From Clostridiales bacterium (GTDB lineage: Bacteria; Bacillota; Clostridia; Lachnospirales; JAQSXR01): 64,000 bases of DNA. The notes under the pieces are model-generated. The model was not told the DNA's origin, did no database searches, and worked only from the letters and a program-made list of their open reading frames with translations. The stretch is taken from positions 2,514 through 66,513 of the forward strand of contig JAQSXR010000004.1 in NCBI GenBank assembly GCA_029256575.1. The letters run 5' to 3'. This document shows positions 7,873 through 64,000 of the stretch, piece after piece; within the stretch, counting starts at the first letter, position 1; every line of letters begins with the position of its first letter. A program made the translations under genes and the position numbers.

Positions 7873-7896
7873 ATGTATAAACTTCGATTAAATTTC

Positions 7897-8523: not shown

Positions 8524-8532
8524 ATTATCACC

Positions 8533-8820: not shown

Positions 8821-8926
8821 AAAAAAGCCCCCCGATATACTATTCTTACATTAAGTATATTAATGTAGAATATCTATTATTCCTATCAAAAGGGCATATA
8901 TGGAAATCAAACAACAACCACTTAAA
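8794..8926. repeat. Inverted repeat: 18-bp perfect arms (8794-8811 and 8909-8926) copying the yabP 5' coding end
   Basis: TTTAAGTGGTTGTTGTTT / AAACAACAACCACTTAAA. The upstream copy even keeps an ATG (plus strand 8900: MEIKQQPLK versus YabP MDEKQQPLK). Confidence 0.9.
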
Positions 8927-8982
8927 AGTTCAAAAAGTCGCTATCAATTGAATTTCTATTTCATTACTTTAATAATCTTATA

Positions 8983-9222: not shown

Positions 9223-9253
9223 AATATTCTACACTCCTTTGCTATACAAAAAC

Positions 9254-9400
9254 AAGCGGCTGACTCTGTATTAGTGTAACAGGAAAGCTTGGGTCTCTTG
9301 CGAGCAAGACAACCTTCTCTATTTACATGTAAGCGGCTACGCCGCACTAGTGAAACAGGAAAGTTTGGGCTCTTGCGAGCAAAACAACCTTCTCTATTTA
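9254..9400. repeat. Tandem direct repeat, 2 copies of about 73 bp
   Basis: AAGCGGCT...TAGTG(T/A)AACAGGAAAG(C/T)TTGGG(T)CTCTTGCGAGCAA(G/A)ACAACCTTCTCTATTTA occurs twice, in the leader/promoter region of the yabO operon. Confidence 0.85.
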
Positions 9401-9401
9401 T

Positions 9402-9434
9402 AAAAAAAATCTACACCTTATCAGTGTAGATTTT
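9402..9434 (-). terminator. Rho-independent terminator of hup
   Basis: AAAATCTACAC...GTGTAGATTTT followed by T8 on the minus strand. Confidence 0.8.
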
Positions 9435-9453
9435 ATGCCTTACTAAATTCAAA

Positions 9454-9726
9454 TTAGTTTACAGCATCTTTAAGAGCTTTACCTGCTTTAAATTTTGGTG
9501 CTTTTGACGCATCAATTTTCATTGTTTCATTAGTTTGAGGATTTCTTCCTTCTCTTGCTGCACGTTCTGCAACGCTGAAAGTTCCGAATCCAACTAATTG
9601 AATTTTTTCACCTTTTGTAAGTTCTTCTGTCACTACGTCGATGAATGCTTTTAAAGCTTTTTCTGAGTCTTTTTTAGACAATTCTGTTTTTTCTGCCATA
9701 GCAGCTACTAATTCAGATTTGTTCAT
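9454..9726 (-). CDS. hup: DNA-binding protein HU
   Basis: 90 aa. MNKSELV...GFGTF...R.GRNPQT...KFKAGK. Confidence 0.95.
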
Positions 9727-9987
9727 TTTTAACTCCTCCTCTTATATTATGTTTTTTTCCTAGCTCCCTAAAACTGACCCCAAAGCCTGTTATATTTTCC
9801 TAGGTATGTTCACTGATGCCAAGCTCTTGCCACAAATTAGCAACACCAGCACCTCTAAGTTTAGTTATAACTGTTTATACAGTATTTGTCAAGGAATATT
9901 AAGCATTTTATGTTGAAAAATCTTGTTAAAAGCCTAATCCGTGCCAAATTCGTAAACATTTACACATAAGCCAAAATTTTCGTCCAT

Positions 9988-10017
9988 AAAACAGGCGAAT
10001 CCTTACTGAATTCGCCT
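9988..10017 (-). terminator. Rho-independent terminator of spoVT
   Basis: AGGCGAAT-tcagtaagg-ATTCGCCT followed by GTTTT on the minus strand. Confidence 0.7.
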
Positions 10018-10026
10018 ATAAATAAC

Positions 10027-10575
10027 TTATTGTTCCATTTGTTTTCCTAAAAATCCTGCTGCTGATGCTGCTAGCTTATGTTCAACGTCTCCCATTTTAG
10101 CCTTAGGACCTTTTGTAAGAAAAATTACAGCTCCTACAGCATCACCCTCACAAATAATAGGTGTAATAACCTGTGCAGTATAATCATCCATTTCTTCATT
10201 TATTACATTAACAAATTTTTTCTCTTCTTTTGTCGCAATTATTGTTTCACGTTCAGAGATAGCAGTCTCAAGACCTTTACTTATGGCTTTAGAAAATAAA
10301 TCTTTTTTAGAACCACCTGATACAGCAATTACTTGATCTTTATCTACGATACATATAGTATGTCCTGTAGTTTGAGCAAGAGCTTCTGCATATTGTTTTG
10401 CAAATGTCCCTAACTCTCCAATAGGTGAATATTTCTTTAAAACGATTTCTCCATCTTTGTCTGTGAATATTTCAAGTGGATCTCCCTCTCTTATTCTCAA
10501 GGTTCTACGAATTTCTTTTGGTATAACCACTCTTCCTAAGTCATCAATACGCCTTACGATTCCTGTTGCTTTCAT
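10027..10575 (-). CDS. spoVT: Stage V sporulation regulator SpoVT (AbrB-type N-domain + GAF-like C-domain)
   Basis: 182 aa. MKATGIVRRIDDLGRVVIPKEIRRTLRIREGDPLEIF is the SpoVT/AbrB swapped-hairpin motif. Length fits SpoVT rather than AbrB. Confidence 0.9.
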   Translation of the reverse strand: MKATGIVRRIDDLGRVVIPKEIRRTLRIREGDPLEIFTDKDGEIVLKKYSPIGELGTFAKQYAEALAQTTGHTICIVDKDQVIAVSGGSKKDLFSKAISKGLETAISERETIIATKEEKKFVNVINEEMDDYTAQVITPIICEGDAVGAVIFLTKGPKAKMGDVEHKLAASAAGFLGKQMEQ

Positions 10576-10664
10576 TATATATTTCCTCCGTTTACCCTAT
10601 TTTGTAATATTAAAAGAGTTAACCTCTGGAGATAGTATTTGTATTCCTGTGATTTTTATACAAA

Positions 10665-11759
10665 TTAATTTCCTATTCCTTTTCCCATTTCTATTTTATT
10701 CCACTGTTTTTGAACAACTTTTATATCTTTTTCTGCTTCTTTTTCCCATTCAGCATATATAGGTGTATAAAATTCTTGTTTTTGCACTTGGAGTAAATTA
10801 TTCCTCAAATATTCATCGTAATCTTTTATAACTTTTTCAAATTCTGTTATTTCTTCTGGAGTCGGTTTAATAATTTCTTCTAATCTCATAATATGATATC
10901 CGAATATTGATTCAACTAAACGTATTTCTCCAATTTCCATATCAAAAGCTGCATCTGAGAATTCATGGGTCATCTCTTTATAGGTAAATGTATATTCTCC
11001 TTCGTTTGCCAACGAAGCTTCATCTTCCGAATATTCTGTAATCAATTTCACAAAATCTTCACCATCTTTTACTCGTTCAAAAAGTTGTTCCGCTTCTATT
11101 TTAGCAGCTTTCTTATCTTCCGCTGAGTAATTAGTTGTTTCAGTTGGTTGTTCACCAGTAAATGTCTTTATAAGTAAATGCTTAACTCTAGCTTTTGTTA
11201 TAATTTCTTCTATTGGTGTATTTAAAAAATATATATATTCACTATTTTCTTCTAATGTTGAATAAATTTTTTCTTCATCAACTTCCATATCTTTTGTTTT
11301 TAAATCTAATAGTTTTGAAAATAAAGCATTTTTCTCATAAACTATCTCAACCGTCGATAGGGTTAATCCTAATGTCTCAATTTCCGATTCTTCTAGCTGA
11401 TCAAAAAAAGTTTTAGCATCTTCTTTAACAGTTTCCAGCTCTTCATTACTTAGAGTAATATTTTCTTCTTTCGATTTTTGTGTTAATACAAGTACTTGTT
11501 TTAATCTAAATTCTAATTCTGTCTTAGCTTGTTCTTTTGCTCCATCTTCAAGCCACACATTACTTGAACCTGCTGCTTCTTCAAATTCAGCTTCAAGAAT
11601 AGCTTGCCACAAAGAAACTTCATCTAAATTTAAAACAGTATCTTTATATTCCATTACCTTTATTTTTTCATAATTATTCTTCCCACATCCTGATAGTAAC
11701 ATTGTTAGTGTTGAAATCATAAGAAAAATTATAGTTAACCTTTTAATTATTTTCCCCAT
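10665..11759 (-). CDS. Parvulin-type peptidyl-prolyl isomerase lipoprotein (PrsA/SurA-like), paralog 1
   Basis: Lipobox LLSGC. Rotamase motifs VKHLLIKT and FGYHIMRLE. Confidence 0.8.
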   Translation of the reverse strand: MGKIIKRLTIIFLMISTLTMLLSGCGKNNYEKIKVMEYKDTVLNLDEVSLWQAILEAEFEEAAGSSNVWLEDGAKEQAKTELEFRLKQVLVLTQKSKEENITLSNEELETVKEDAKTFFDQLEESEIETLGLTLSTVEIVYEKNALFSKLLDLKTKDMEVDEEKIYSTLEENSEYIYFLNTPIEEIITKARVKHLLIKTFTGEQPTETTNYSAEDKKAAKIEAEQLFERVKDGEDFVKLITEYSEDEASLANEGEYTFTYKEMTHEFSDAAFDMEIGEIRLVESIFGYHIMRLEEIIKPTPEEITEFEKVIKDYDEYLRNNLLQVQKQEFYTPIYAEWEKEAEKDIKVVQKQWNKIEMGKGIGN

Positions 11760-11772
11760 TTGTCTACCTCAC

Positions 11773-12852
11773 CTAGCTGAATATAGTGCCAATTTCAAGT
11801 TTATCCCATACTTCATCAACATAATTTACTGTGTATTTTTCTGATTCTTTTTCAAAAATACCCCAGAAATATTCTGATTGTAAGTACTCTAACATTGCAG
11901 TCCAAGCTTCTTCTTTGTATTTTACTAAAGAATCTTGATATGCCTGATAGTCTTCAGTAGTAATCTCAGGAATAGCTTCAAGTCTCATAATATGATAACC
12001 ATACTCAGTTTCAACTAATCGAGTTTCTCCTACTTCCATGTCATATGCTGCTTCTTCAAACTGAGGAACCATTTCATCTCTTCCAAATGTAATTTCACCA
12101 TTAGCCTCAACTGAGCCAGTATCTTCTGAGAACTCTTTTACAAGAGCTACAAAATCTTCACCACTTTGTACTTTGGCAAAAATATCATCTGCTTTTGTCT
12201 TAGCTGCTGCTTTATCTTCATCTGTCTTAGGGGTTCCATCTTCATTAATAGTTTTTATTAAAATATGTTTAACAGTTACTTGTTGCATGAAATATTCTGG
12301 ATCTTTAGTAACACTTTCAACATAAGTTTGGTCATTGTTTAATGCAGTATTTATTTCTTCATCAGTCGGTACATAATCACCAACAGTTTTATCAAAAACT
12401 TTTCCAACTAGCGCATCATTATAAAATGCTCTCTTTGCAGTTTCTAATGTAACACCAAGAGTTTTAATCTCTTCTGGTACTCCATCAAAAAATTCTTGAG
12501 CTTGTGTATCAATATCTATCTTTTCTTCATCCGTTAATACCATTCCATCATTTTTGGCCATCTCTGATAAAATCGCTATTTCCTTAATTCTGTCTTTTAA
12601 GGATACTAATAATTGTGTTTTTTGATCTTCAGTCCATTCTGTAACTCCAGCATTATCTTCAAATACAGCCTGCCATAACAGAACTTCGTCTTTATATATT
12701 TTTGTATCATTAATACTTGCCGCTACTGTACTAGCTAGATTTTCTTTCTCTTTATCTTTTTTGTCATCATTATTTTTACAGCCCACTGTAATACTTGCCA
12801 CTAAAGATAGGGACAACATGAGCACGATAACCTTTTTATAAATCAACTTCAT
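11773..12852 (-). CDS. Parvulin-type peptidyl-prolyl isomerase lipoprotein (PrsA/SurA-like), paralog 2
   Basis: Lipobox TVGC. VKHILIKT and YGYHIMRLE. Clearly paralogous to the adjacent gene. Confidence 0.8.
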   Translation of the reverse strand: MKLIYKKVIVLMLSLSLVASITVGCKNNDDKKDKEKENLASTVAASINDTKIYKDEVLLWQAVFEDNAGVTEWTEDQKTQLLVSLKDRIKEIAILSEMAKNDGMVLTDEEKIDIDTQAQEFFDGVPEEIKTLGVTLETAKRAFYNDALVGKVFDKTVGDYVPTDEEINTALNNDQTYVESVTKDPEYFMQQVTVKHILIKTINEDGTPKTDEDKAAAKTKADDIFAKVQSGEDFVALVKEFSEDTGSVEANGEITFGRDEMVPQFEEAAYDMEVGETRLVETEYGYHIMRLEAIPEITTEDYQAYQDSLVKYKEEAWTAMLEYLQSEYFWGIFEKESEKYTVNYVDEVWDKLEIGTIFS

Positions 12853-12915
12853 TTCTTTTCCTCCTAAAAATAATTAGTGTTTCAGCCACCATGTTTCTAT
12901 TATAGTTGATAACTT

Positions 12916-15900
12916 TCAAAGTTTCAAACATTTTATTTCTTCGATAAGTGTATTTATCTGAATAAAAGCATCTTTTTTACTTATCTTTCTAAGAGACAGA
13001 GCAAAAAAAGGTTTTCCTATTACTGTAAATTCAAGCTTATTTTTATATCGAGCAATTAGTTCTGGAATTTTTGATGCATCAATATTTGCTGATGGTTTCA
13101 TAAATAATTTTACTACTTCCTTAACTTGTTCTACCCCAATTATTTCTGCTTTATTCGCATTTGCTTTCATTAATGCAATTTCCAATAAATTTTGTACGCA
13201 TGTAGGAAGTGTCCCAAATCGATCTTCTAACTCCTCTTGCATATCATTATAATCTTCGTCATTTTCAATTGTTGCAATTCTTTTGTATACATCAAGTTTT
13301 TGAAACTCATTTTTAATATACTCAGATGGTATATAGGCATCATAATTAAGATCTACGGTTGTTTCAAAATATTCCTCAACAGGCTCATCTTTTAGTGCTC
13401 TAACTGCCTCATCTAACATTTTACAATACATATCATAACCAACCGCTTCCATGTTCCCATGTTGCTCGGCTCCTAACAGATTCCCTGTTCCTCTTATTTC
13501 CAAGTCTCTCATTGCTATTTTAAATCCTGATCCGAGTTCTGTAAATTCTCTAATAGCTTGTAGTCTCTTCTCTGCTATTTCTTTTAACATCTTATCTCTC
13601 TTATACATTAAATAAGCATATGCAGTTCTATTTGATCTACCAACTCGACCCCTTAATTGATACAACTGTGCAAGACCTAATTGATCGGCATCATGTATGA
13701 TCATTGTGTTTACATTTGAAATATCTAATCCTGTTTCAATTATGGTGGTACTTACTAACACATCAATCTCACCATTAATGAAGTCGAACATAATCTTTTC
13801 TAATTCACTTTCCTTCATTTGGCCATGTGCGAAGGCAACATTAGCTTCAGGAACCAATTTACTAATACTATTAGCAACTTCAACTATTTTATTTACTCTA
13901 TTATATACATAATAAACCTGTCCTTCTCTTGCGAGTTCTCGATTAATTGCTTCACGTATAAGCTCATCATTTTGTTCTAATACATAAGTCTGAATCGGCA
14001 TCCTCTCTTCAGGTGGCTCTTCAAGAACACTCATATCTCTAATACCAATTAAGCTCATATGAAGTGTCCTTGGTATTGGTGTAGCAGTTAATGTTAAAAC
14101 GTCAACATCAGATTTAATATCTTTCATTTTTTCCTTATGCCCAACTCCAAATCGCTGCTCTTCATCAATAACTAATAACCCTAGATCTTTAAACTTCAAA
14201 TCTTTTGATAGAATCCTATGCGTTCCTATTACGATATCAACCATTCCAGAACTTATTCCTTCTAAGGTCTTCTTTTGTTCTTTTGCCGTTCTAAACCTAG
14301 AAAGCATATCAACTCTGATTGGAAAGTCTTTCATTCTTTGTACAAATGTATTATAGTGTTGCTGTGCTAGAATAGTTGTAGGAACAAGATAGGCTACTTG
14401 CTTGCCATCTTGTACTGCTTTGAAAGCTGCACGAATAGCTACTTCCGTTTTACCGTACCCAACATCTCCACAAATCAGTCTATCCATTATCTTAGCACTT
14501 TCCATATCTTTTTTTGTCTCACTAATCGCTGAAAGTTGATCATCTGTTTCATCATACGGGAACATTTCTTCAAACTCTTGTTGCCATACGCTATCTTTCG
14601 TATATCGAAATCCTAATCTAGCCTGCCTCTTAGCATATAATTCAACTAAATTAAATGCTAATTGCTTAACAGCTATTTTTACTTTTGTTTTCGTCTTTTC
14701 CCATTCCGCGGAACCTAATTTATTTAATTTTGGCTTTCTATTTTCTGCTCCTATATATTTTTGAATTGCATCTAATTGCGTAGTCGGAACAAACAAATTA
14801 CCATTATTACTATACTCTATTTTAATGTAATCTTTTGAGATAGTATCTATCTCAATCTTATCAATCCCTTTATAAATACCTAATCCATGTTTTTCATGAA
14901 CAACATAATCACCCACTAATAAATCTGTAAAACTCTGGATTTTCTTGCCTGTGTAGGTTTTTTTATGTTTATTTTTCTTAAGACTCTTTCCAAAAACATC
15001 TGTTTCAGAAATTATGATAAATTTAAGAAGAGGATACTCAAATCCCTTGTGCAAACTTCCATTTGAAATGATTACCTCTCCCGGTAGAATTGGTCTATCA
15101 AGATTTTCACTATAAAAAGCATTAAGCCCCTCATTCATCAATTCCTTTGCTAATCTTTCTGCTCTTGTTTTTGAAGCTGCTAGTAGCAAAACTTTGTTCT
15201 TTTTACTTTTCCACTGAATTAAGTCTTTAAGTAATAATTCGAAACTACCATTATAGGCTGAAGTTGCCCTCGCAGTTATGTTATATGTGTCTTTAACTTG
15301 AAATTCCTTTGTTACTTGTGGCATCATACTACTTAAAACAATTTTTTGCTTTGTTAGCATATGAACAACGGTATTATAATCATATAAAACTTCAATTTGT
15401 CCAGGTAGTATATACCCCTTCTCTAGTCTAGTAAGCATATTGTCTCTAAATTCTTCGTAGGTAAAGGATGCTTTTTCCGCTATCCTGGTAGGTTCGTCCA
15501 ATATTACGATTGAGTCCTCGGATTTAAAGTATTCAACAAAGCATACTAATTTTTTGTAAAAATAATTTATATAACTTTCCAAACCTCTATATTCAACTGT
15601 TTGTGTCAGTTTTTCATATGTTTGCTTGTATATTGGTTTTATTCTGTTAATTGCTTCATGATTCTTTTGTTTTGATAATGAGTCAACAAATGTATCCATA
15701 TCATTTTTTAAATCAATAATGCTTTTTGCCCTAATTTCTTCATTAATTATTATTTCGACTGCTGGGAAAATAAGAATTTTTTCTAATTTTTCAATTGATC
15801 TTTGACTCTCAATATCTATTGTTCTGATAGAGTCAACTTCTTCATCCCAAAGTTCAATTCTAAATGCACATTCTTCAGTTAGTGAGAATATATCAATTAT

Positions 15901-16428
15901 TCCACCCCGTATAGAAAATTGCCCTTTTGCCTCAACCTGAGATGTTCTTTCATATCCTATATCAATTAATTTGCTTTTTAGTTGATCTAATTTTATAATT
16001 TCACCAAGGGTTATTTCCAGTGTATTTTTCTCATAGACATCAATTGGTATTAGCTTATCTAGGCATCCATCTATTGTTGCAATTACTGTAATATTTTCAC
16101 CATTTGAGATTCTTCTAATAATCTCTAGCCTTTGAGCCGTGATATCATTACTATGGATATCCGCATTAAAAAATATAAGATCTCTCGCAGGATATAAATA
16201 TACATTCTTATCAAAGAAAAGATAATCTTCATATATTTCTTTTGCCTTTATTTCGTTATATGTCACAATAAGCTTAGTCTTATAGTTTTGTGCTAAGTCA
16301 TAAAACAAATGACATTTTTGGCTATCTATTGATCCTGTTATATATATAGGAGTATTTCCATCGGCTATATTCTTCTTACAAATACTTATCTCTTCTAATT
16401 CACTTAACGGTTGCGTAACAGCTAACAT
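12916..16428 (-). CDS. mfd: Transcription-repair coupling factor Mfd
   Basis: 1170 aa. Superfamily-2 helicase motifs GDVGYGKTEV and DEEQRFG, plus a UvrB-homology N-terminus. Syntenic with pth and spoVT. Confidence 0.97.
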   Translation of the reverse strand: MLAVTQPLSELEEISICKKNIADGNTPIYITGSIDSQKCHLFYDLAQNYKTKLIVTYNEIKAKEIYEDYLFFDKNVYLYPARDLIFFNADIHSNDITAQRLEIIRRISNGENITVIATIDGCLDKLIPIDVYEKNTLEITLGEIIKLDQLKSKLIDIGYERTSQVEAKGQFSIRGGIIDIFSLTEECAFRIELWDEEVDSIRTIDIESQRSIEKLEKILIFPAVEIIINEEIRAKSIIDLKNDMDTFVDSLSKQKNHEAINRIKPIYKQTYEKLTQTVEYRGLESYINYFYKKLVCFVEYFKSEDSIVILDEPTRIAEKASFTYEEFRDNMLTRLEKGYILPGQIEVLYDYNTVVHMLTKQKIVLSSMMPQVTKEFQVKDTYNITARATSAYNGSFELLLKDLIQWKSKKNKVLLLAASKTRAERLAKELMNEGLNAFYSENLDRPILPGEVIISNGSLHKGFEYPLLKFIIISETDVFGKSLKKNKHKKTYTGKKIQSFTDLLVGDYVVHEKHGLGIYKGIDKIEIDTISKDYIKIEYSNNGNLFVPTTQLDAIQKYIGAENRKPKLNKLGSAEWEKTKTKVKIAVKQLAFNLVELYAKRQARLGFRYTKDSVWQQEFEEMFPYDETDDQLSAISETKKDMESAKIMDRLICGDVGYGKTEVAIRAAFKAVQDGKQVAYLVPTTILAQQHYNTFVQRMKDFPIRVDMLSRFRTAKEQKKTLEGISSGMVDIVIGTHRILSKDLKFKDLGLLVIDEEQRFGVGHKEKMKDIKSDVDVLTLTATPIPRTLHMSLIGIRDMSVLEEPPEERMPIQTYVLEQNDELIREAINRELAREGQVYYVYNRVNKIVEVANSISKLVPEANVAFAHGQMKESELEKIMFDFINGEIDVLVSTTIIETGLDISNVNTMIIHDADQLGLAQLYQLRGRVGRSNRTAYAYLMYKRDKMLKEIAEKRLQAIREFTELGSGFKIAMRDLEIRGTGNLLGAEQHGNMEAVGYDMYCKMLDEAVRALKDEPVEEYFETTVDLNYDAYIPSEYIKNEFQKLDVYKRIATIENDEDYNDMQEELEDRFGTLPTCVQNLLEIALMKANANKAEIIGVEQVKEVVKLFMKPSANIDASKIPELIARYKNKLEFTVIGKPFFALSLRKISKKDAFIQINTLIEEIKCLKL

Positions 16429-18124: not shown

Positions 18125-18258
18125 AATATTATTGAATACATTTTACTCCAGTTAATCAACCTTTGCAACTTATAATCTTTGTTTTATATTCTTTTAGTTT
18201 CGATACGATATGTATCTTCTATTCTATACTTAATACGTAGTCTGTTTTTATGTTCGTA

Positions 18259-18476
18259 TGTTTTATGTTTTATGTTTTAGTTTTAGTTTTAGTTTTAGTT
18301 TTAGTTTTTGTTTTAGTTTTAGTTTTTGTTTTAGTTTTAGTTTTAGTTTTAGTTTTAGTTTTAGTTTTAGTTTTAGTTTTAGTTTTATATTTTATTTTAT
18401 GTTTTATGCTTTATGTTTTATGTTTTATGTTTTATGTTTTATGTTTTATGTTTTATGTTTTATGTTTTATGTTTTA
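18259..18476. repeat. Compound microsatellite: (TGTTTTA)3-(GTTTTA)18-degenerate-(TGTTTTA)11
   Basis: Read directly. Hexamer array 18280-18387 includes two GTTTTT variants. Heptamer arrays at 18259-18279 and 18400-18476. Confidence 0.95.
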
Positions 18477-18487
18477 TAAACTTTAAA

Positions 18488-23295: not shown

Positions 23296-23328
23296 AAGGC
23301 AGATTAGATATTTTTTCTAATCTGCCTT
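23296..23328 (+). terminator. Terminator after murC
   Basis: AAGGCAGATTAG-atatttttt-CTAATCTGCCTT. Confidence 0.7.
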
Positions 23329-23342
23329 GTCTTTATTAATAT

Positions 23343-23450
23343 GTATTGTTTCTATTAATAAGTATTGTCTCTATTAATAAGTATTGTCTCTTTTAATAAG
23401 TATTGTCTCTTTTAAAAGTTTTGTCTCTTTTAATAAGTCTTTCTCTATTT
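23343..23450. repeat. Tandem array, 5-6 copies of a ~19-bp unit GTATTGTCTCT(A/T)TTAATAA
   Basis: Read directly between the murC terminator and the stop codon of the LytTR gene. Confidence 0.9.
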
Positions 23451-24160
23451 TATATGAACTCTTTTGCTATAAATTTATTAAATTCTCGTATTACCCTTTG
23501 TTTTCTTCTAACACTCATAGGAATTCTTATCCCATTACAAGTTATTAGTTCATCACAATCTATTTCTTTAATATATGACATATTAACAATAAATCCTTGA
23601 TGTGTTCTTACAAACCCCCTTGAAAGAAGTTTAATTTCTTGATCTTTTATTTTCCCCTTAACCGAATATTTATCACCCATATATGTTACAAAGGTTACTT
23701 GTCTCATATAGCCTTCAATATAGACAATTTCATTTACTTCAAGAACTACAATTTCTTCCTTATCTTTCACGACAAATCGTACGTGATCATATTGATAACA
23801 TTCTAGTGCTCTCTGAAATTCCAAACAAAACTCATAATTATTTACAGGTTTTGTAAAATATTGAAATATTCCCAATCTAAATGCTTCCTGTATATATTTA
23901 TAATTTGAACAAATAAATATAATACTAACATATTTATCTATACTTCTTATAAGTTTCACAATCTCTAGTTCGTTTACCTCATTCATTATTATTTCAATAA
24001 TTATAATGTTATATTTCTTCCCACTAATGTATTCGTGAGCTAACTGCTCAGCTTGTTGGAAGGAAAACGTTATCTCTTTATCCTTATCCTTATACATTTC
24101 CATGCAATTTTGTATATGATCGTCCTTTTGTTCAGTCTTCCTGCATATGGCTACTCTCAT
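23450..24160 (-). CDS. LytTR-family DNA-binding regulator with degenerate (pseudo-)receiver domain
   Basis: C-terminal LytTR domain (IVYIEGYMRQV...FVRTHQGFIVNMSYI). N-terminal receiver-like fold reads ICRKT in place of the IC(E/D)DD acidic pocket, and IIIEIIM in place of the LDI phospho-Asp site. GGAGGG RBS precedes the ATG at 24160. Confidence 0.8.
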   Translation of the reverse strand: MRVAICRKTEQKDDHIQNCMEMYKDKDKEITFSFQQAEQLAHEYISGKKYNIIIIEIIMNEVNELEIVKLIRSIDKYVSIIFICSNYKYIQEAFRLGIFQYFTKPVNNYEFCLEFQRALECYQYDHVRFVVKDKEEIVVLEVNEIVYIEGYMRQVTFVTYMGDKYSVKGKIKDQEIKLLSRGFVRTHQGFIVNMSYIKEIDCDELITCNGIRIPMSVRRKQRVIREFNKFIAKEFI

Positions 24161-24305
24161 GTATACCCTCCGTAATGCCAATTCCCCACAATAAACAATT
24201 ATACCTTTTTAGTAATCATTCTTCAACATACATTTTTAATATTTATATTTATTACTTAAATTTTCCATTTTAGTGAAAATTAACAATGTTCAAAACTTAT
24301 ACACA

Positions 24306-29290: not shown

Positions 29291-29320
29291 GGGGACGGTC
29301 CTTTCATAAGGTCCGTCCCC
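29291..29320. terminator. Stem-loop between convergent nadE and the ABC exporter
   Basis: GGGGACGGTCC-tttcataa-GGTCCGTCCCC (one mismatch). Confidence 0.6.
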
Positions 29321-29400
29321 ATTATAATATCGTGATATAAGAAGGACCGTCCCCATTGTATCATAGTGATACAAAAAGAACCGTCCCCATTGTATCACTT
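29308..29400. repeat. Three tandem 34-bp units containing CCGTCCCCATTGTATCA..GTGATA
   Basis: Units begin at 29308, 29342 and 29376. Each carries an internal short inverted repeat (TATCA/TGATA). Confidence 0.9.
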
Positions 29401-53620: not shown

Positions 53621-54550
53621 TTAATCTTCTATTTTAATGTTTCCACTTGTTGTAGAAGCCTGTATAATGACAGAACCACCTTCATAAATATCTGTTCCTG
53701 AATCTTCTTCCTTCATATCTGTAAATTCATTTTTAACATAGCCCGAAGATGTTGAGTATTTTAATTCAAAGCCATCATTATCCGGTAATCCTAATTCAAT
53801 ATTCCCTGAACTTGCTTCTGTTATTACCGAGATCTTTGGCATTTCTAGAAAATCAATGTCAATATTACCACTTGACGTATCTGCAGTAAATTTATTTGCT
53901 TCCACTTCGCCTTTAATATTACCTGAACTTGCTTCTGTATATATTTCATTTGATTTAACACGATCTAGGTCAATATTTCCTGAGGAAGCTTCTGCTTTTA
54001 ATTTTAATATATTTCCTTTTACTTTTATATTACCACTTGATGCTTTTAACTGCATTGAGCTAGTATCATCAATGTCAGTTTTTATATTACCAGATGATGT
54101 TTTTGCATCGATTTGAAGTGCTTGTATAGATTTGATTTCAATATTTCCTGAAGATGCTTCTAATTCATACTCTAAACTTGTACCTTCTGGTATGTATATT
54201 TGCACTCTATTATTCCCAAAACTTATTCCTATGGTAATATTTAGTTTTTTATTTTCTTTAATTACCATTGTTGTTCCACTTTGTTCTACGGTAGGAATAT
54301 CTTCTAAATCTCTATTACTATATACCTCAACTTTTACTTTATCACCCTTATATTCTTCAATTTCTAAATCAGATGAGGTTAAATCCACACTAATCTTATA
54401 TACTTCATTCGCTTCCACTGAAAATGTGGATTGTAATTTAGCGCTACCCCAAATTCCTATATCTCCCACTTTACTTAAACCATACCCAACAAGAACAATT
54501 ATGATAATTGTCCAAATAAACGCCTTATTTCTCATATAATTTCTATCCAC
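53621..54550 (-). CDS. Membrane-anchored DUF4097-like beta-helix repeat protein
   Basis: N-terminal TM helix, then about 9 repeats built around (A/T)SSGNI(K/D/E). Confidence 0.6.
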   Translation of the reverse strand: MDRNYMRNKAFIWTIIIIVLVGYGLSKVGDIGIWGSAKLQSTFSVEANEVYKISVDLTSSDLEIEEYKGDKVKVEVYSNRDLEDIPTVEQSGTTMVIKENKKLNITIGISFGNNRVQIYIPEGTSLEYELEASSGNIEIKSIQALQIDAKTSSGNIKTDIDDTSSMQLKASSGNIKVKGNILKLKAEASSGNIDLDRVKSNEIYTEASSGNIKGEVEANKFTADTSSGNIDIDFLEMPKISVITEASSGNIELGLPDNDGFELKYSTSSGYVKNEFTDMKEEDSGTDIYEGGSVIIQASTTSGNIKIED

Positions 54551-54880: not shown

Positions 54881-56188
<1,308 letters not shown>

Positions 56189-57465: not shown

Positions 57466-58830
57466 ATGGCGGATACAATCATTAGAATACAAAGTATTGA
57501 ATTAGAGAATTTTAAAAATATACAAAAAGGAATTATTGATTTAACAAGCTACAGACAAAAAAGCTACTATACTGGTAAATCTGATATCATTGGAATTTAT
57601 GGACAAAATGGTTCTGGTAAAACAGCTGTAGTAGAAGCCTATCGATTATTTAAAATTATAGCAAGTGGTGAAAAGATTCCTGATGATATTCAGAATTATA
57701 TTTACGAACTTGAAGACACTGCTAAGTTAAAATTTGTATTTTATATTGAAAAAACGAATTATAAGTTCTTAGTATATTATGAATTTTCTATCAGAAGAAA
57801 AAATAATAATCAAGCAGAAATAGTGAATGAAAAATTAAGTAGTTCTGAGATATTAGAAAATACTAAAAAACACAAATATGATATCGTAGAATACGATATT
57901 GACTATATTGGTTCACCGATTCTTCCTATTGCTCGCTACAAAGAATTGATTAAGCAAAATAAAGAAAATGATGTTAATTTAAAAGTAATAAAGAAGTTAA
58001 CGAGAGAAAGAAGAAGGTCATTTATTTTTAATGATGATTTAATTGAACTATTTCATCAACACCCAAATGAACTCGGTTACGACATTATCTCTTCTATTAA
58101 GCATTTTGCAGTGATTAATTTATTTGTCATTACTACTCGTAATCCATCACCTATTAGTCTAAATTTAATTCCTTCAAATTATAGATTAGAAAACAGTAAT
58201 GATTATATCTCCATTAAATTATTAGACTCTTCCATAATTGACAGAAATCGTTATAATCTTGTTCTAACTATTATTGAACAAATCAATATAGTATTAACTA
58301 CAATAATCCCGCATTTACATTTAGAAGTAGTCGATTTAGGAAATGAGCTATCACATAGTGGAGATAAATTATTAAAATTCGAATTACTGTCGGTGAAGAA
58401 TGAAATTCGGATTCCACTTAAATATGAATCTGAAGGAATAATAAAGATTATTTCTATACTAAGCACCTTAATATCTATGTATAATAATCCTTCAATCTGC
58501 TTAATTGTTGACGAGCTTGATTCAGGAATATTTGAATATTTATTAGGCGAACTACTAAAAATAATAGAACAAAAAGGTAAAGGTCAGTTTTTATTTACTT
58601 CACATAATCTTCGTGCTCTAGAAATGTTAGACAAAGATTCTTTAGTCTTTAGTACTACAAATTCACGAAATAGATTCATTCGAATTAGGAATATAAAGAT
58701 GAATAATAATTTGAGGAATGTTTATTTGCGTGGAATTGATCTAGGTGGCTTAAGTGAATCTATCTACGAAGAAACAAATAGTTTTGAAATCGCTCATGCA
58801 TTTAGAAAAGCAGGTGAATTTTTTGAGTAA
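57466..58830 (+). CDS. ABC/SMC-type (AAA_15/AAA_21-like) ATPase, OLD-N-terminal-like; candidate defence ATPase
   Basis: 454 aa. RBS AAAGGAGGA. IELENFKNI, Walker A GQNGSGKT (46-53), YESEG (320-324), Walker B CLIVDELD (345-352), FTSHN (377-381). Confidence 0.85.
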   Translation: MADTIIRIQSIELENFKNIQKGIIDLTSYRQKSYYTGKSDIIGIYGQNGSGKTAVVEAYRLFKIIASGEKIPDDIQNYIYELEDTAKLKFVFYIEKTNYKFLVYYEFSIRRKNNNQAEIVNEKLSSSEILENTKKHKYDIVEYDIDYIGSPILPIARYKELIKQNKENDVNLKVIKKLTRERRRSFIFNDDLIELFHQHPNELGYDIISSIKHFAVINLFVITTRNPSPISLNLIPSNYRLENSNDYISIKLLDSSIIDRNRYNLVLTIIEQINIVLTTIIPHLHLEVVDLGNELSHSGDKLLKFELLSVKNEIRIPLKYESEGIIKIISILSTLISMYNNPSICLIVDELDSGIFEYLLGELLKIIEQKGKGQFLFTSHNLRALEMLDKDSLVFSTTNSRNRFIRIRNIKMNNNLRNVYLRGIDLGGLSESIYEETNSFEIAHAFRKAGEFFE

Positions 58831-59515
58831 AAAGATTGTACTATTTATTGTTGAAGGAATAACAGATGAAATTTCATTATCATTAGTTCTTTCTAAAATA
58901 ATTGAAGGTGATAAAATTGTAAAATTCAAAGTGATTAATGGAGATATTACAACCAAAACCGGTTCGAATCCAAGCAATATCCTCAACAAAATAACTAAGA
59001 TTATTAGTGAATTTATTGCGAGAGATGTATATGAAAAAAAAGATATTCTACAAGTAGTTCATTTAGTAGATACGGATGGTGCATTTATAAACGATAACTC
59101 TATCGTGCAAAAAGATATTAAATTTACTGATTATGATACACAATATATTTTTACTAAAAACGTAGAAAACATTAGAAATCGAAATGAGCAAAAAGCTGGC
59201 AATTTAAATAAACTGATTGAAACAGATACTGTATATACTAACCTCCCATATCGAACTTACTTCTTCTCTACCAATCTAGAACACGTACTTCATAATAATC
59301 AAGAAGTAATTGATCACGAGAAGAGTGAGTATTCTCAGATGTTTGAAAATAAGTTTGTTAAAAATCCATATAGTTTTATAGACTTTTTTAATAATCCTGA
59401 ATTTGCAGTAAGTGGGGATTATAATGAAACTTGGAATTTTATTCAGCAAGGTACTAATTCATTAAATCGATATTCAAATTTTCACTTGTACCTTAACACA
59501 ATAGAAAGAAAGTAG
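58754..59515 (+). CDS. Toprim-domain protein, RloB/AbiLii/AriB-like; candidate defence nuclease
   Basis: IVLFIVEGITDE (Toprim Glu), VVHLVDTDGAF (DxD), STNLEHVLH. Overlaps the ATPase gene. True start is uncertain: GTG 58754, ATG 58796, GTG 58814 or TTG 58823. Confidence 0.75.
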   Translation: MNLSTKKQIVLKSLMHLEKQVNFLSKKIVLFIVEGITDEISLSLVLSKIIEGDKIVKFKVINGDITTKTGSNPSNILNKITKIISEFIARDVYEKKDILQVVHLVDTDGAFINDNSIVQKDIKFTDYDTQYIFTKNVENIRNRNEQKAGNLNKLIETDTVYTNLPYRTYFFSTNLEHVLHNNQEVIDHEKSEYSQMFENKFVKNPYSFIDFFNNPEFAVSGDYNETWNFIQQGTNSLNRYSNFHLYLNTIERK

Positions 59516-59523
59516 GAATAGGA

Positions 59524-60518
59524 ATGAAAAAAGCATCTGTTTTATTAGATATACTGACTGTTAAAGATTTTACTTTTAGTAATCGATATGTATGTGCTCC
59601 TTTTGATATAGCAACTGCTTCTGTGACTGGTTTAGTTACAGAAGAACTTTTATCTATATATGAGCAACGCAAGGGACCATCTTTAATCGTAGTAGAGCAA
59701 GCGGCTATTACACTAGCAGGTCAATTAGAGAAAAACTAATCTTTGTAGACCGTGATGGATGTATTGATGGATTATCGAAACTGGTATCTGTTATACATAA
59801 TAACAATCAGGTTGCAGTTTTGCAAATAAATCACGCAGGAAGTGCTGCTAACACTGAATTAACTAAATTAGAAGCAGTAGCCCCTTCTGCAGTAATACAT
59901 CCTATATTGAATCGTTCTTTACCTAAAGCTTTGACCTTATCTGAGATCCAAGATATCAAAGATAAATTTGTTGATGCAGCTTTACGTGCTAAGAAGGCAG
60001 GTTTTGATGGAGTTGAGATCCATAACTGCCACGGATTTTTATTAACACAATTTCTTTCCCCGATAACAAACCTAAGAACAGATGAATATGGAGGTAGTCT
60101 AGAAAACAGAAGTCGCCTTCTTATGGAGATAACTTGTGCTGTACGTAAAGCAATTGGAGATGATTCTCTTCTTCTTGTTCGTTTAGGAGTGGATGACTTA
60201 ATATCAGGTGGTTTAACTTTAGAAGAAGGATGCATCGTATCAGCAATGCTTGAAAAAGCTGGTATTGATATTCTTGATGTCTCTACTGGACTTGTTCCTC
60301 CTCTCGGGTTACCCGGACCTGCTATGCTAAGAAAAACTCTAAAGACAGTTAAAGAACACGTAAATATTCCTGTTATCGGAGCGGGTGAGTTGGAAGAGAT
60401 TGAAATCGCAGAATACATGGTTGAACAGGGTGAGATAGACTTTATTGCCCTTGCAAGACCTATCATGCAACAACCAAATTTCGTTGAGGTATTATTAGAA
60501 AAAATAGCATTGAAATAG
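59524..60518 (+). pseudogene. NADH:flavin oxidoreductase (Old Yellow Enzyme family) split by a frameshift in an A5 run
   Basis: ORFs 59524-59739 and 59820-60518 join into one OYE-like protein (...QINHAG..., IHNCHGFLLTQFLSP.TN.RTDEYGGSLENR) if one A is added at 59731-59735. The frame from 59736 is open into the second ORF. Confidence 0.8.
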
Positions 60519-60577
60519 TGAAAATATATATTTGGTCTCTATTTGCGACTATATTGATGTATTTCTAGAATACAAAT

Positions 60578-60652
60578 AAACCAGCATAATAAACTGACCC
60601 CTGTCAAGCAGACATGGGTCAGTTCATTATAATTATCAATAATGCTGGTTTT
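60578..60652. terminator. Nested long stem-loop between convergent genes
   Basis: Outer stem AAACCAGCAT / ATGCTGGTTT. Inner stem ACTGACCC / GGGTCAGT. Confidence 0.65.
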
Positions 60653-60724
60653 CTATTTTCTTATTGATTTATTTATTTGATTCTTATTTTATTTATTTAC
60701 CGATTAATTTATGGTTATAACCTA

Positions 60725-61900
60725 TTAGCGTCTTTGAGTCATACCAGATCTTACTGGTCTTTCTTGCCTAGTTTGCATATCAGGCCTAACGGGCATATCA
60801 GGTCTAATTGGCATACCTGGTGTCATCGGTGTTCCTGGTGTACCTGGAGTCATCGGCATTCCTGGTGTTCTAGGCGTACCTGGAGTCATCGGCATTCCTG
60901 GAGTTCTAGGCATTCCTGGAGTCATCGGCATTCCTGGAGTCATCGGCATTCCTGGAGTCATCGGCATTCCTGGAGTCATCGGCATTCCTGGAGTCATCGG
61001 CATTCCTGGTGTTCCTGGAGTACCTGGAGTCATTGGCATTCCTTGCGTTCCTGGCATTCCTGGTGTCATTGGCATTCCATTTGTTCTCGGCATCCCTGGT
61101 GTCATCGGCATTCCTTGGGTTCCTGGCATCCCTGGTGTCATTGGCATTCCATTTGTTCTCGGCATTCCTGGTGTCATTGGCATTCCATTTGTTCTCGGCG
61201 GCATCCCTGGTGTCATTGGCATTCCATTGCTCCCATTATTCATATAACCATTATTCATATGGTTTTCATTATTCATATTACCATTATCCATCCCATTGCG
61301 ATTCATATTTTTGTTTATATCATCCATACCATTCCTATTAAAATTATTCATACCATTATAGTTCATAGTAGGTCTTGTTTCTACGTTGCTTCCCCATCTA
61401 CTTCTATCCCATCTATCTCCTTCATTTCTGCCGTCTCTTCCGTCTCTATCCCAATCTCTATCTCTGTCTCTGTCTCTATCCCTATCTCTATCTCTATCTC
61501 TTCCATCTTTATCTTTATCATCTCTGTCTTTATCGTCTCTGTCCCATCTTCCTCCATCCCATCTTCCTCTGTTCCATCTGTCTCTATCCCATCTATCTCT
61601 ATCCCATCTACCTCTATCCCATCTATCTCTATCCCATCTATCTCTTTCGTCCCTGTCTCTATCCCATCTGTCTCTATCCCATCTGTCTCTATCCCATCTA
61701 TCCCTATCCCATCTATCATCGATACGGTCAACTATTATCCTTGGCAGGTCTCTCGATCCCCATTCTGGCAAAGGTATTGGCCAAACTACCTGTTGCGCAT
61801 TAGTAGCTTTGTTTGTTTCTTGTACTTGTTTCTCATCTAATTTGGGGTAATGTTTACTAGTTTTAATAGTATTTGCTCTAGAACAATCTTTACAAGCCAT
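60725..61900 (-). CDS. Hypothetical low-complexity protein: unique N-terminus, RDRW repeats, N/M/G-rich block, MPMTPG repeats
   Basis: ATG preceded by GAAGGAG at 8 nt and followed by the stem-loop at 60578-60652. All other frames are open only because the DNA is repetitive. Confidence 0.65.
   Translation of the reverse strand: MACKDCSRANTIKTSKHYPKLDEKQVQETNKATNAQQVVWPIPLPEWGSRDLPRIIVDRIDDRWDRDRWDRDRWDRDRWDRDRDERDRWDRDRWDRGRWDRDRWDRDRWNRGRWDGGRWDRDDKDRDDKDKDGRDRDRDRDRDRDRDRDWDRDGRDGRNEGDRWDRSRWGSNVETRPTMNYNGMNNFNRNGMDDINKNMNRNGMDNGNMNNENHMNNGYMNNGSNGMPMTPGMPPRTNGMPMTPGMPRTNGMPMTPGMPGTQGMPMTPGMPRTNGMPMTPGMPGTQGMPMTPGTPGTPGMPMTPGMPMTPGMPMTPGMPMTPGMPMTPGMPRTPGMPMTPGTPRTPGMPMTPGTPGTPMTPGMPIRPDMPVRPDMQTRQERPVRSGMTQRR
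60911..61000. repeat. Five perfect tandem copies of an 18-bp unit (CATTCCTGGAGTCATCGG), coding for MTPGMP
   Basis: Read directly. Degenerate copies extend over about 60780-61230. Confidence 0.95.
61381..61740. repeat. Degenerate 15-bp and dinucleotide-codon repeats coding for (W)DRDR
   Basis: ATCCCATCT(A/G)TCTCT units and a TCTCTATCTCT... run. Confidence 0.9.
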
Positions 61901-62005
61901 AAATATACTCCTTCACAATATTATAATTAGTTATTATCACTTTATAATATGCAAACTCCTATAAAAGGGGTGTAAATAATCTATTATTTTTTGTACTTCA
62001 TTCTT

Positions 62006-62129
62006 GAATTATAGCGTCAAAAGTAAATAGTTTTTACTATAACAACTACAAATAGTGTCTCGACGTTTCAACGAACACTATTTGTAGTGTGTTATAATGT
62101 AAAACTTACTTTTGACACTATAATTATTC
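62006..62129. repeat. 124-bp imperfect palindrome (two ~55-bp arms)
   Basis: Left arm AATTATAGCGTCAAAAGTAA...CTACAAATAGTGT pairs with right arm ACACTATTTGTAG...TTACTTTTGACACTATAATT. Several perfect blocks of 8-13 bp are separated by small indels. Confidence 0.85.
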
Positions 62130-62154
62130 TTTTATATTCAAGAGAAAATAAATA

Positions 62155-62183
62155 TTGAAATATATGTCTATTTATATCATAAT
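62155..62183 (+). promoter_or_regulatory. Sigma-A-type promoter for the ABC exporter pair
   Basis: TTGAAA-17 nt-CATAAT, about 40 nt upstream of the ATG at 62225. Confidence 0.45.
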
Positions 62184-62224
62184 AAGAAATGCACGAACAA
62201 TCTCGTATATATAAGGAGTCATCA

Positions 62225-63973
62225 ATGAAAAGAAAACATTTTTTAATTCACTATATTAATAAATATAAATGGAAGTATCTTTTTGGGATAATAACACTTT
62301 TCATTGTAGATATCTTCAACTTATTTATCCCACAGTTAACCGGAGAAATTACAGATGGCTTGCAGACCCACTCTTTAGATATGGGTGGAGTTCTATCTAT
62401 TGTACTTAAGATTTTATTCGTTGGACTCGTTATTGCAATTGGTAGATTCTTTTGGAGATACTTTATTTTTGGTTCAGCTAGACTAATAGAATTTGAAATA
62501 AGAAATAACATGTTTAAACACTTGTCAGGATTATCCACTCGTTACTTCAATAATAATAAAACTGGTGATTTAATGGCACATTTTACAAATGATATGAGTG
62601 CTATTCGTATGTCTATCGGTCCTGCCGTGATAACGTCTTTTGATGCAACTATCATGACAATAATGGTTTTAGTAAAAATGATAACTCATATCGATATGAA
62701 ATTAACCTTTGTCGCAGTTATTCCACTTTTTTTCATTGCGTTTGGCAGCATTTTATATGGTAAAGCAGCCGAAGCACGCTTTGAAGCAAAACAGCAAGCG
62801 TTTTCAGATTTAACAGACCAGGTACAAGAAAGCATTTCTGGGGTTCGAGTTATTAAAGCATTTGTTCAAGAAAGAAAAGAGCTAAAAGCTTTTGCAATCG
62901 CTAACAGAAATAACATGGATAAAAACATGAGGGTCGTTAAATTGCAAGCTATCGTCATGCCTTTGTTAGATATCGTTATTGGTATTAGTAGTCTAATTAC
63001 TTTACTATATGGCGGTTATTTAGCTATTATCGGGGAAATAACCTTAGGTAAATTTATTGCTTTTAATCAATATATCGGTATGCTCGTTTGGCCCATGATT
63101 GCAGCTGGTGAAAGTATAACCCTATTCTCACAAGGGCATGCTTCACTCAATCGAATTAAAGATATATTTAATGAACAATCTGATGTATTTGACAATGATA
63201 ATGTCAAAGATATTCAATCTATAGAGGGGACAATAGAATTTAAAGATTTAACTTTCTTTTATCCAGAATCAAGTTACCCCGCTTTGCAAAATATTACATT
63301 GAAAGTAGAAAAAGGATCCACTCTAGCTATATTAGGAAGAACTGGCAGTGGAAAAACAACTTTTGCTAATCTCTTATTGCACTTATACAATACCGATCAA
63401 AACTCAATACATATCGATGGCAATGATATCTGCGAAATCCCTCTTAATACACTTAGAGAAAACATTGCTTATGTTCCTCAAGACAATTTTTTATTTTCCG
63501 ATACATTACAAAATAATATTGCGTTTGGTGCGAATACAAATGATATTAATTTAGTCTATGATGCAGCAAAACTTGCAAACATACATGATAATATAATGGA
63601 TTTTCCAGAAAACTATGATACCATGGTTGGCGAAAGAGGCGTTACCTTATCTGGTGGCCAAAAACAAAGAAGTTCAATTGCACGAGCACTTATGAAAAAT
63701 TCTCCAATCTTAATTCTTGACGATGCCTTATCTGCTGTTGATACAGACACGGAAGAAAAGATTCTTGCAAATTTAAAGAAAAATAGAATTAATAAAACAA
63801 CAATAATAATAGCACACAGAATCTCTACTATACAAAATGCGGATCATATACTTGTTCTTGATGATGGGAAAATAGTCGAATACGGAACTCACGAGTATTT
63901 ATTGTCACTTAAGGGAACGTATTCTACTATTTATGAAACTCAACAACTTGAAAAACAGCTTGAAAATGAGTAG
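62225..63973 (+). CDS. ABC exporter, fused permease/ATPase (first of a probable heterodimeric pair)
   Basis: AAGGAG RBS. 6-TM domain, Walker A GRTGSGKTT, LSGGQKQR, ILILDDALS. Confidence 0.9.
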   Translation: MKRKHFLIHYINKYKWKYLFGIITLFIVDIFNLFIPQLTGEITDGLQTHSLDMGGVLSIVLKILFVGLVIAIGRFFWRYFIFGSARLIEFEIRNNMFKHLSGLSTRYFNNNKTGDLMAHFTNDMSAIRMSIGPAVITSFDATIMTIMVLVKMITHIDMKLTFVAVIPLFFIAFGSILYGKAAEARFEAKQQAFSDLTDQVQESISGVRVIKAFVQERKELKAFAIANRNNMDKNMRVVKLQAIVMPLLDIVIGISSLITLLYGGYLAIIGEITLGKFIAFNQYIGMLVWPMIAAGESITLFSQGHASLNRIKDIFNEQSDVFDNDNVKDIQSIEGTIEFKDLTFFYPESSYPALQNITLKVEKGSTLAILGRTGSGKTTFANLLLHLYNTDQNSIHIDGNDICEIPLNTLRENIAYVPQDNFLFSDTLQNNIAFGANTNDINLVYDAAKLANIHDNIMDFPENYDTMVGERGVTLSGGQKQRSSIARALMKNSPILILDDALSAVDTDTEEKILANLKKNRINKTTIIIAHRISTIQNADHILVLDDGKIVEYGTHEYLLSLKGTYSTIYETQQLEKQLENE

Positions 63974-63983
63974 GAGGGGTAAA

Positions 63984-64000
63984 ATGACAAAACAAAAACA
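63984..64000 (+). CDS. Start of a downstream ORF (likely the partner ABC exporter subunit); runs off the right edge
   Basis: AGGAGGGG RBS 5 nt before ATG (MTKQK...). Only 17 nt are visible. Confidence 0.35.

Follow-up and report, generated by a model that had tools for sequence, protein, structure and literature searches.

We describe a gene on the minus strand (60725..61900) of a 64,000-nt stretch of DNA from a Clostridiales bacterium (contig JAQSXR010000004.1; the whole stretch is called the window below), which encodes a 391-residue protein built largely of short tandem repeats. We hold with high confidence that this is a genuine minus-strand gene. Its product is predicted to be almost wholly disordered and modular, and it belongs to a family that is real but very narrow, with two members in a narrow lineage of Lachnospiraceae-like, spore-forming Clostridia. 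Most likely, the protein evolves fast and is located in the outer layers of the spore. Specifically, we lean, tentatively, towards a disordered coat or exosporium protein expressed under the mother-cell sigma factor sigma-K and consisting of an N-terminal anchor that is conserved and of repeat modules that can expand. Pointers in this direction include a promoter-like element that is nearly identical upstream of the only orthologue and a conserved N-terminal region that precedes the repeats in both proteins.

A minus-strand gene for a tri-block repeat protein

The open reading frame (ORF) begins with ATG and comprises 391 codons and a stop, as given in the ORF listing, and the differences among its repeat units are exclusively synonymous. 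A preliminary description of this DNA had reported a tripartite minus-strand ORF with a ribosome-binding site (RBS) and a downstream stem-loop, all of which are present as described. The RBS, GAAGGAG at 61908..61914 on the minus strand, lies 7 nt before the ATG, and not 8 nt as stated there.

Block boundaries were set by counting residues by hand on the translation. The N-terminal region (residues 1–57, 61730..61900; the unique N-terminus of ~55 aa noted earlier) carries the motifs HYPK(L/I)D(E/D)K and TNAQQVxWPxPLPExG. Next comes a polyampholyte block (residues 58–169, 61394..61729) that contains 12 DRDRW units at 61538–61717, DK/RD repeats, an (RD)8 run at 61454–61501 and two further RW units, and in which Trp recurs regularly at every fifth residue. 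An Asn/Met/Gly-rich segment (residues 170–225, 61226..61393) with a 15-nt period at 61233–61291 leads into an array of ~23 units of 18 nt encoding GMPMTP or GMP(R/G)T(N/Q/P) (residues 226–364, 60809..61225). A basic C-terminal tail, IRPDMPVRPDMQTRQERPVRSGMTQRR, completes the protein (residues 365–391, 60728..60808); like the blocks before it, it is read from the minus strand. The basic tail and the three internal blocks had all been recognized before, the blocks with somewhat different lengths: the charged Trp repeats span 112 aa (previously ~120), the Asn/Met/Gly-rich segment 56 aa (~65) and the MPMTPG array 139 aa (~135).

Tandem Repeats Finder detected a 15-nt period repeated 12 times at 61536–61717, a 6-nt period repeated 13 times at 61443–61519 and an 18/36-nt period repeated 19 times at 60843–61225. 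The five perfect 18-nt copies mentioned in the preliminary description are units u13–u17, at 60917–61006. Thirteen units of the array read GMPMTP, each with an M-P-M motif, so that the protein holds more than 13 MPM (MXM) motifs, with M-x4-M spacing. By hand count, five amino acids (57 Arg, 52 Pro, 50 Asp, 46 Met and 44 Gly) make up 64% of the 391 residues; Met accounts for 11.8%, Gly for 11% and Arg plus Asp for 27%, and there are 16 Trp, 7 Ser and 3 Leu. This amino-acid composition explains why the GC content climbs to 54% within the gene and why its minus strand is strongly purine-rich.

The N-terminus reads as hydrophilic and has no hydrophobic stretch; we therefore agree with the earlier view that there is no signal peptide, and no membrane segment was seen anywhere in the sequence. 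Structure prediction with AlphaFold2 gave a mean predicted local distance difference test (pLDDT) score of 45, with no residue at or above 70 and no confident fold even for the N-terminus, a result that fits intrinsic disorder but comes from a single-sequence run, in which disorder and missing alignment information cannot be separated. The sequence is also compatible with a phase-separating scaffold, which had been suggested previously.

Both strands of the locus are open across ~1.16 kb. On the plus strand, a 387-aa ORF (60677..61840) shares codon boundaries with the minus-strand gene, as both start where position mod 3 = 2. In this shared phase, a plus-strand stop corresponds to a TTA, CTA or TCA codon of the minus strand, and the plus ORF stays open because the minus ORF has none of these codons before Leu21, whose tta codon reads as TAA at 61838–61840, the exact end of the plus ORF. 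Taken alone, this argument is symmetric between the strands, and four other observations decide the matter. First, the 13 GMPMTP units vary in columns 9 and 15 only (cca/ccg and aca/act), and the alternative units of the array vary as gga/ggg/ggt, cca/ccg/cct and aca/acc/acg/act. All of these differences are third positions of the minus frame, as are the gat/gac and aga/agg differences in the charged repeats, whereas in the plus frame the array differences would be first positions that change residues (W/R, C/S/G/R and S/P/T). Second, the plus ORF would start with TTG, has no purine-rich RBS and begins 27 nt beyond a terminator hairpin and its T-run on that strand. Third, it would write most Arg residues as CGG, a codon that is rare in low-GC Clostridia. 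Last, it is the minus-frame protein that is conserved in the orthologue. The plus-strand ORF, which the preliminary description had named as a product that might displace the minus-strand one, thus exists, but we reject it as a product and treat it as an antisense shadow.

Repeat number differs between populations. The main contigs of X2 and X3, two of the soil metagenome runs, have a 6-base in-frame deletion at 61461 that turns (RD)8 into (RD)7. A minor 31-nt contig in X2 (depth 13 versus 53) is identical to the window at this site, which suggests that the (RD)8 allele is also present in that run. The repeat-length variation that had been predicted from the perfect DNA repeats is therefore borne out for the (RD)n run; for the MPMTPG array it is not assessable, because the short-read assemblies all break within the array.

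One orthologue and its shared signals

No fitting family was found for the protein in Pfam, NCBIfam, PADLOC or PHROGs, where the sole PHROGs match was a low-complexity one to a family of unknown function, and a profile search of the PDB gave no solved structure that fits. This agrees with the previous statement that no characterized family has such a composition. An exhaustive HMMER search of 1.84 billion representative proteins returned 844 hits, nearly all on residues 220–375, where the top matches were generic Pro/Thr/Gly-rich proteins. It contained one true homologue, P0020, an unannotated protein of 163 aa from Logan contigs of SRR13001971 and SRR13001973, which matched residues 1–108 with 104 bits (E = 8e-25). 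Word-indexed searches with the full protein gave compositional matches only, all to the Met/Pro/Gly array: the GMPM tail of an ABC ATPase, MP-rich linkers of LysM proteins and the SMPMTPGMPQNG repeats of a JGI hypothetical protein. The same type of search yielded zero candidates with the N-terminus alone and, with a two-sequence profile, only P0020 and the unrelated signal-peptide protein P0160. Scans with the N-terminus detected no relative in GTDB genomes, JGI metagenomes (also with degenerate patterns) or IMG/VR, and the exact protein is not on record, an absence that follows from short-read contigs breaking inside the arrays.

P0160 (L084 38–391) is a secreted protein of 117 aa from another metagenome that contains RGRWDRDRWDRDRWDRGRW followed by a poly-Pro tail. 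As it contains RDRW units, these repeats arose independently at least twice.

P0020 has the same order of parts as the protein of the window, from the N-terminal motifs through RDRW repeats and an (RD)n run to an Asn/Gln-rich end. Its residues 1–67 are 53% identical to residues 1–57 of the window protein, and both N-termini hold the Pro-rich motif WP(I/L)PLPE. Within the strictly conserved motifs, the two coding regions show six synonymous differences (cat/cac, tac/tat, ccc/ccg, act/acc, gcg/gcc and cct/cca), and the single indel between the N-terminal coding regions is 15 nt long and in frame. P0020 differs in that its N-terminus is 5 residues longer, it has fewer RDRW units and it lacks both the Met/Pro/Thr/Gly array and the basic tail. 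The similarities extend to flanking DNA and genes: an AAGGGG sequence lies at the same RBS distance, and promoter-like block, terminator arms and neighbouring genes are shared.

The intergenic DNA of the two orthologues has otherwise mostly diverged, yet two upstream blocks, which together take up 28 of ~42 positions, are perfectly conserved. The block ATTTACACCC (61968..61977, minus strand) is identical at 10 of 10 positions in L082, the orthologue's locus, and L083, and includes the 'AC' of a candidate sigma-K-type −35 element. The block TTGCATATTATAAAGTGA (61937..61954, minus strand), identical at 18 of 18 positions in the same two sequences, includes a candidate −10 box, CATATTAT(A), at 61943–61951 and probably also covers the transcription start region. 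The layout is ATTTACACCC-N13/14-TTGCATATTATAAAGTGA, with a diverged spacer that is one base longer in the orthologue (14 nt) than in the window (13 nt); written as a promoter, the window has CACC-N17-CATATTATA at 61943–61972. Saujet et al. (PMC3789822) call CATATTAT 'a canonical -10 box for mother cell sigma factors' and describe sigma-E and sigma-K promoters as having the −10 element in common and differing at −35 (ATA versus AC). For the mapped Clostridioides difficile sigma-K promoters in Table S7 of that work, AC-to-CATA distances are 15–19 nt by the same count, for example 18 for sleC, 17 for CD3580 (with an identical −10, GCATATTATA) and 19 for CD0564. Here, the window has 18 nt and the orthologue 19 nt between these elements, and the sequence thus agrees with sigma-K promoters in its AC −35, its CATA---TA −10 and the ~15–19 nt between them. 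Counted on both strands of 128 kb, CATATTAT occurs 12 times and mACm-N17-CATAnnnTA 4 times; the other three copies of the latter fall within long ORFs, so that no copy except the one upstream of this gene is placed as a promoter would be. The sigma-K-like −10 CATATTATA at 61943–61951 was correctly located in the preliminary description but rated there as weak evidence. The conservation of the whole block in the sole orthologue and its match to C. difficile sigma-K promoters make the case stronger than that, and favour the spore coat or exosporium option among those proposed.

Other promoter types were considered for the same region. There is no sigma-70-type −35/−10 pair in the conserved upstream region; TTTACA was rejected as a −35 element, being 19–21 nt from any −10-like hexamer. 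The orthologue does not share a sigma-H-like AGGAGTT of the window, and a sigma-E-type promoter was dismissed as no ATA −35 lies at the proper distance. The region upstream of yabP offered no clear internal control for a mother-cell −10.

Downstream, the stem-loop noted earlier proved to be a strong hairpin, ACCAGCAT...ATGCTGGT at 60580–60649, which begins 75 bases beyond the stop codon of the gene. The folded stretch has an energy of −43.8 kcal/mol and a z score of −6.35 against shuffles. Because T-runs flank the hairpin on both strands, we regard it as a bidirectional intrinsic terminator (60568..60649) that can end transcription of this gene as well as of the flavin-oxidoreductase gene that converges on it. 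The hairpin of the orthologue has the same CCAGCAT/ATGCTGG arms, and an Rfam scan of 59000–64000 gave no match.

Gene order also links the two loci. Both genes are divergent from a pair of ABC-exporter genes and a small ferredoxin gene. For the first exporter, identity between the window and the orthologue locus is 71%, which exceeds its identity to every GTDB representative (the best, an Anaerocolumna metagenome-assembled genome, reaches 69%), and the second ABC gene and the ferredoxin gene are next in line at both loci. On its other side, the P0020 gene is followed by the terminator and then by a DUF4097 gene that matches window positions 53621–54550 (E = 4e-32). In the window, ~6 kb of extra DNA lies between the gene and its DUF4097 neighbour, occupied by two oxidoreductase fragments, an AbiLi-like ATPase with a partner ORF, and D-Ala carboxypeptidase-like and GH1-like ORFs (the last two named from translations only).

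A spore-surface reading and its alternatives

The organism is known from metagenomes only. It is present in the three soil metagenomes X1–X3 at ~160x, 65x and 16x, respectively, and at 2–3x in sediment, bioreactor, soil and manure runs. Among the genes of the window are those for SpoIIE and YabQ, along with YabP-like and SpoVT-like ORFs (both named from translations only). They form part of a conserved Firmicute sporulation neighbourhood at 928–16428, with ftsH, tilS, spoIIE, divIC-like, yabQ, yabP, spoVT-like, two PrsA-like lipoprotein genes and mfd, from which we conclude that the organism is an endospore former.

We infer sigma factor use, expression timing, spore location, N-terminal anchoring and a matrix role for the repeats, as follows. 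Transcription of the gene would take place in the mother cell, at a late stage of sporulation, and start at the sigma-K-type promoter (AC −35, CATATTAT −10). The protein, made in the mother-cell cytoplasm without a signal peptide, would then be deposited on the developing spore, in the outer coat or exosporium. The orthologue, the conserved signals, the repeat modules, the lack of an export signal and of a confidently predicted fold, and the spore-forming host all suggest such late mother-cell expression and outer-layer deposition. Its conserved 57-residue N-terminus (HYPKxD... TNAQQVxWPxPLPE) may dock onto an underlying coat or basal-layer protein, while the repeat modules, namely the Trp-studded Arg/Asp polyampholyte, the Asn-rich segment and, in this species only, the Met/Pro/Thr/Gly array, would form an extended, hydrated surface matrix and would lengthen or shorten through replication slippage.

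Several points weigh against this proposal. No coat or exosporium gene adjoins the gene. The promoter call is consensus matching plus conservation in two sequences, whose spacers differ by 1 nt and are among the longer ones in the known range. With two members, the family gives thin conservation statistics and no alignment depth for AlphaFold2, and none of the RNA runs searched holds the locus. Finally, the protein has few Cys, Tyr, Lys and Ser, a composition that sets it apart from the known cross-linked coat proteins.

Among known systems, the BclA-type exosporium nap proteins, which occur in the Bacillus cereus group and in C. difficile and are encoded by sigma-K-dependent bclA genes, are similar in layout, with a short N-terminal domain followed by a long repeat region. 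In BclA, the N-terminus attaches to a basal-layer protein and precedes Pro/Thr/Gly-rich repeats whose unit number varies between strains (PMC10470788), and bclA1–3 are treated in the sigma-K regulon section of PMC3789822. Patches of the array such as GTPGTPGMP look collagen-like, but the Pfam Collagen model (PF01391) scores 19.5 bits, below its 27.2-bit cut-off. In most units (G-M-P-M-T-P), Gly recurs at every sixth and not every third residue, which makes a triple helix impossible. In further differences from BclA, the protein has a 27-residue basic tail in place of a C-terminal trimerization domain (C-terminal pLDDT below 50; no Pfam or NCBIfam domain), and its Arg/Asp/Trp and Asn blocks have no BclA counterpart. 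No sequence homology to BclA was detectable.

The SKR-repeat outer-coat proteins CotG and CotB of B. subtilis, and ExsB, share another trait, a disordered central or C-terminal block of short (5–7 residue) charged tandem repeats in a coat protein made by the mother cell. Disordered tandem-repeat regions in CotB and CotG have been described, and a phase-separation-like assembly was suggested by the authors (PMC7821199). Those repeats, however, have a high content of Ser, Lys and Arg, are substrates of the CotH kinase and are encoded next to cotH. Here, the repeats are D-R-D-R-W and R-D, with 7 Ser in 391 residues; the scanned flanking ORFs are an ABC exporter, OYE fragments and an AbiLi-like ATPase with its partner, and none of those ORFs matched a CotH model (Pfam, NCBIfam). 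The protein thus lacks the defining features of both the BclA and the CotG/CotB families. Linkers of clostridial LysM and other Firmicute proteins (P0001, P0002, P0004 and P0006) contain near-identical short motifs, SMPMTPGMPQNG and GMPMRPGMPMTQ, but this likeness is compositional only, as these proteins have other flanking domains (ABC ATPase, LysM) and neither the N-terminus nor the RDRW block. Eukaryotic mixed-charge RD/RE domains, as in U1-70K and NELF-E, also contain long alternating Arg-Asp runs; there is no homology, and in this bacterial protein the run is broken by regular Trp, so that only a resemblance is left.

A different location is proposed if the gene encodes a disordered protein that stays in the cytoplasm of cells that are vegetative or under stress, either a hydrophilin-like protectant of the late embryogenesis abundant type or a condensate scaffold held together by Arg–Trp cation–pi contacts in the RDRW block. 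The very hydrophilic, Gly-rich sequence is in keeping with such a role (hydrophilins are defined by more than 6% Gly, high hydrophilicity and induction by water deficit), and so are the evenly spaced aromatic residues, the absence of a confident fold and of an export signal, and the occurrence of the organism in soil, sediment, manure and a bioreactor. We nevertheless consider it unlikely, since the conserved upstream element looks like a mother-cell −10 and is not accompanied by a sigma-70 pair, and since the family is extremely narrow in all collections searched, where a general protectant would be expected to be more widespread. Alternatively, the Met-rich array could be the functional core and serve as a Cu(I)/Ag(I) sponge or as a sacrificial methionine antioxidant, a role that would be compatible with a spore-surface location. 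MXM and MXXM motifs are Cu(I) ligands in Ctr1, PcoE/SilE and CueO, and the 46 Met residues of the protein and the M-P-M motifs of the array match this pattern, as a matter of motif presence and not of binding. The sole orthologue, however, has kept the promoter, N-terminus and charged repeats and lacks the whole array, which is therefore an add-on and not the conserved function. GMPM-type tails on unrelated Firmicute proteins (an ABC ATPase and LysM proteins) likewise suggest compositional drift rather than a metal site. There are no cop, cus or pco genes near the gene, whose neighbours are the exporter pair and a broken flavin oxidoreductase, and no signal peptide that would place the protein outside the cytoplasm. 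The Cu(I)-binding idea of the preliminary description thus finds no support in the context, and we regard a Met-rich core as improbable.

That the locus is non-functional, a chance-open, expanding minisatellite, or that it works through the plus-strand product, would account for the two open strands, the recent, perfectly repeated units and the absence from protein databases. We find this very hard to credit, because no frame but the minus frame suits the variation, the N-terminal motifs are conserved in the orthologue, with synonymous differences and an in-frame indel, and promoter, RBS and terminator are conserved; the plus ORF has the marks of a codon-aligned shadow, and the database absence is explained by short-read breaks in the array. 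We give equally little credence to the idea that the protein is a substrate of the divergent ABC exporters, secreted without a classical signal peptide. The divergent arrangement is kept in both species, but it may be mere inherited gene order in two relatives. The exporters have ABC_membrane and ABC_tran domains only, without a C39 peptidase domain, the N-terminus has no double-glycine leader, and no such gene lies beside the exporter in its two closest GTDB relatives (69% and 66% identity).

The spore-surface proposal can also be put more boldly. The protein might represent a new class of spore-surface or mother-cell material, in which the well-mixed Arg/Asp polyampholyte self-assembles by cation–pi contacts through Trp stickers at every fifth residue, the newly expanded Met/Pro array provides an elastomer-like, oxidant- or metal-scavenging outer layer for the spores of an anaerobe in oxic soil, and the N-terminus is a novel coat-anchoring motif. 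We judge this version to be rather improbable. Most plausibly, the protein is a new instance of the repeat-rich disordered spore-surface proteins, from an unannotated family whose tri-block composition is unusual. In themselves, low-complexity coat proteins specific to one lineage are no surprise, and no new mechanism is shown here.

Gene surroundings and implications

Other features of the window were recorded alongside. Within the extra ~6 kb, an AbiLi-type AAA ATPase gene (PADLOC, 3.6e-28) and an overlapping 253-aa ORF without a family match (57466–59515) lie in a patch of 25–28% GC and are absent from the syntenic locus L082; the pair is probably an acquired abortive-infection or defence islet. 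Next to it, the gene for an OYE/NamA-type NADH:flavin oxidoreductase is broken up into two ORFs across 59524–60518, the first (59524–59739) corresponding to the N-terminus of the NamA model (positions 5–69) and the second (59820–60518) to Pfam positions 99–338, either as a pseudogene or through an assembly error. A GH1 (phospho-)beta-glucosidase-like ORF (54893–56188) has an odd middle region and, at 431 aa, seems short for the GH1 family; it may carry an internal deletion.

Upstream of the repeat-protein gene, the intergenic region contains a palindromic element (62045–62124) with perfect 14-bp arms, ACTACAAATAGTGT and ACACTATTTGTAGT. It is found once in the window and not at all in the orthologous spacer of L082, has a depth ~9 times that of the genome in runs X1–X3 and joins many different contigs, and looks like a dispersed repeat of the repetitive extragenic palindromic (REP) or miniature inverted-repeat transposable element (MITE) kind. 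Tandem repeats also occur elsewhere in the window: a TTTTATG-like microsatellite of ~36 copies (18246–18477), a 19-bp unit repeated 6.6 times (23327–23449) that adjoins ORF 23450–24181, a 34-bp unit repeated 2.5 times (29313–29397) and a 30-bp unit repeated 3.3 times (7917–8011) that encodes an extension of YabQ, C-terminal and rich in Lys.

The Lachnospiraceae and related bacteria abound in gut and soil and, to our knowledge, the outer layers of their spores are almost uncharacterized. Repeat genes of this kind are systematically absent from protein databases, as short-read assemblies break in the arrays. The conserved sigma-K-like promoter turns the spore-surface proposal into a specific and directly testable hypothesis. 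If the proposal is correct, the two-member family would be a natural case of module gain through repeat expansion, and its N-terminal motif would be a candidate anchor for spore display. The protein would then give access to the ways in which such spores construct their surface and vary it, with effects on adhesion, hydration and resistance.

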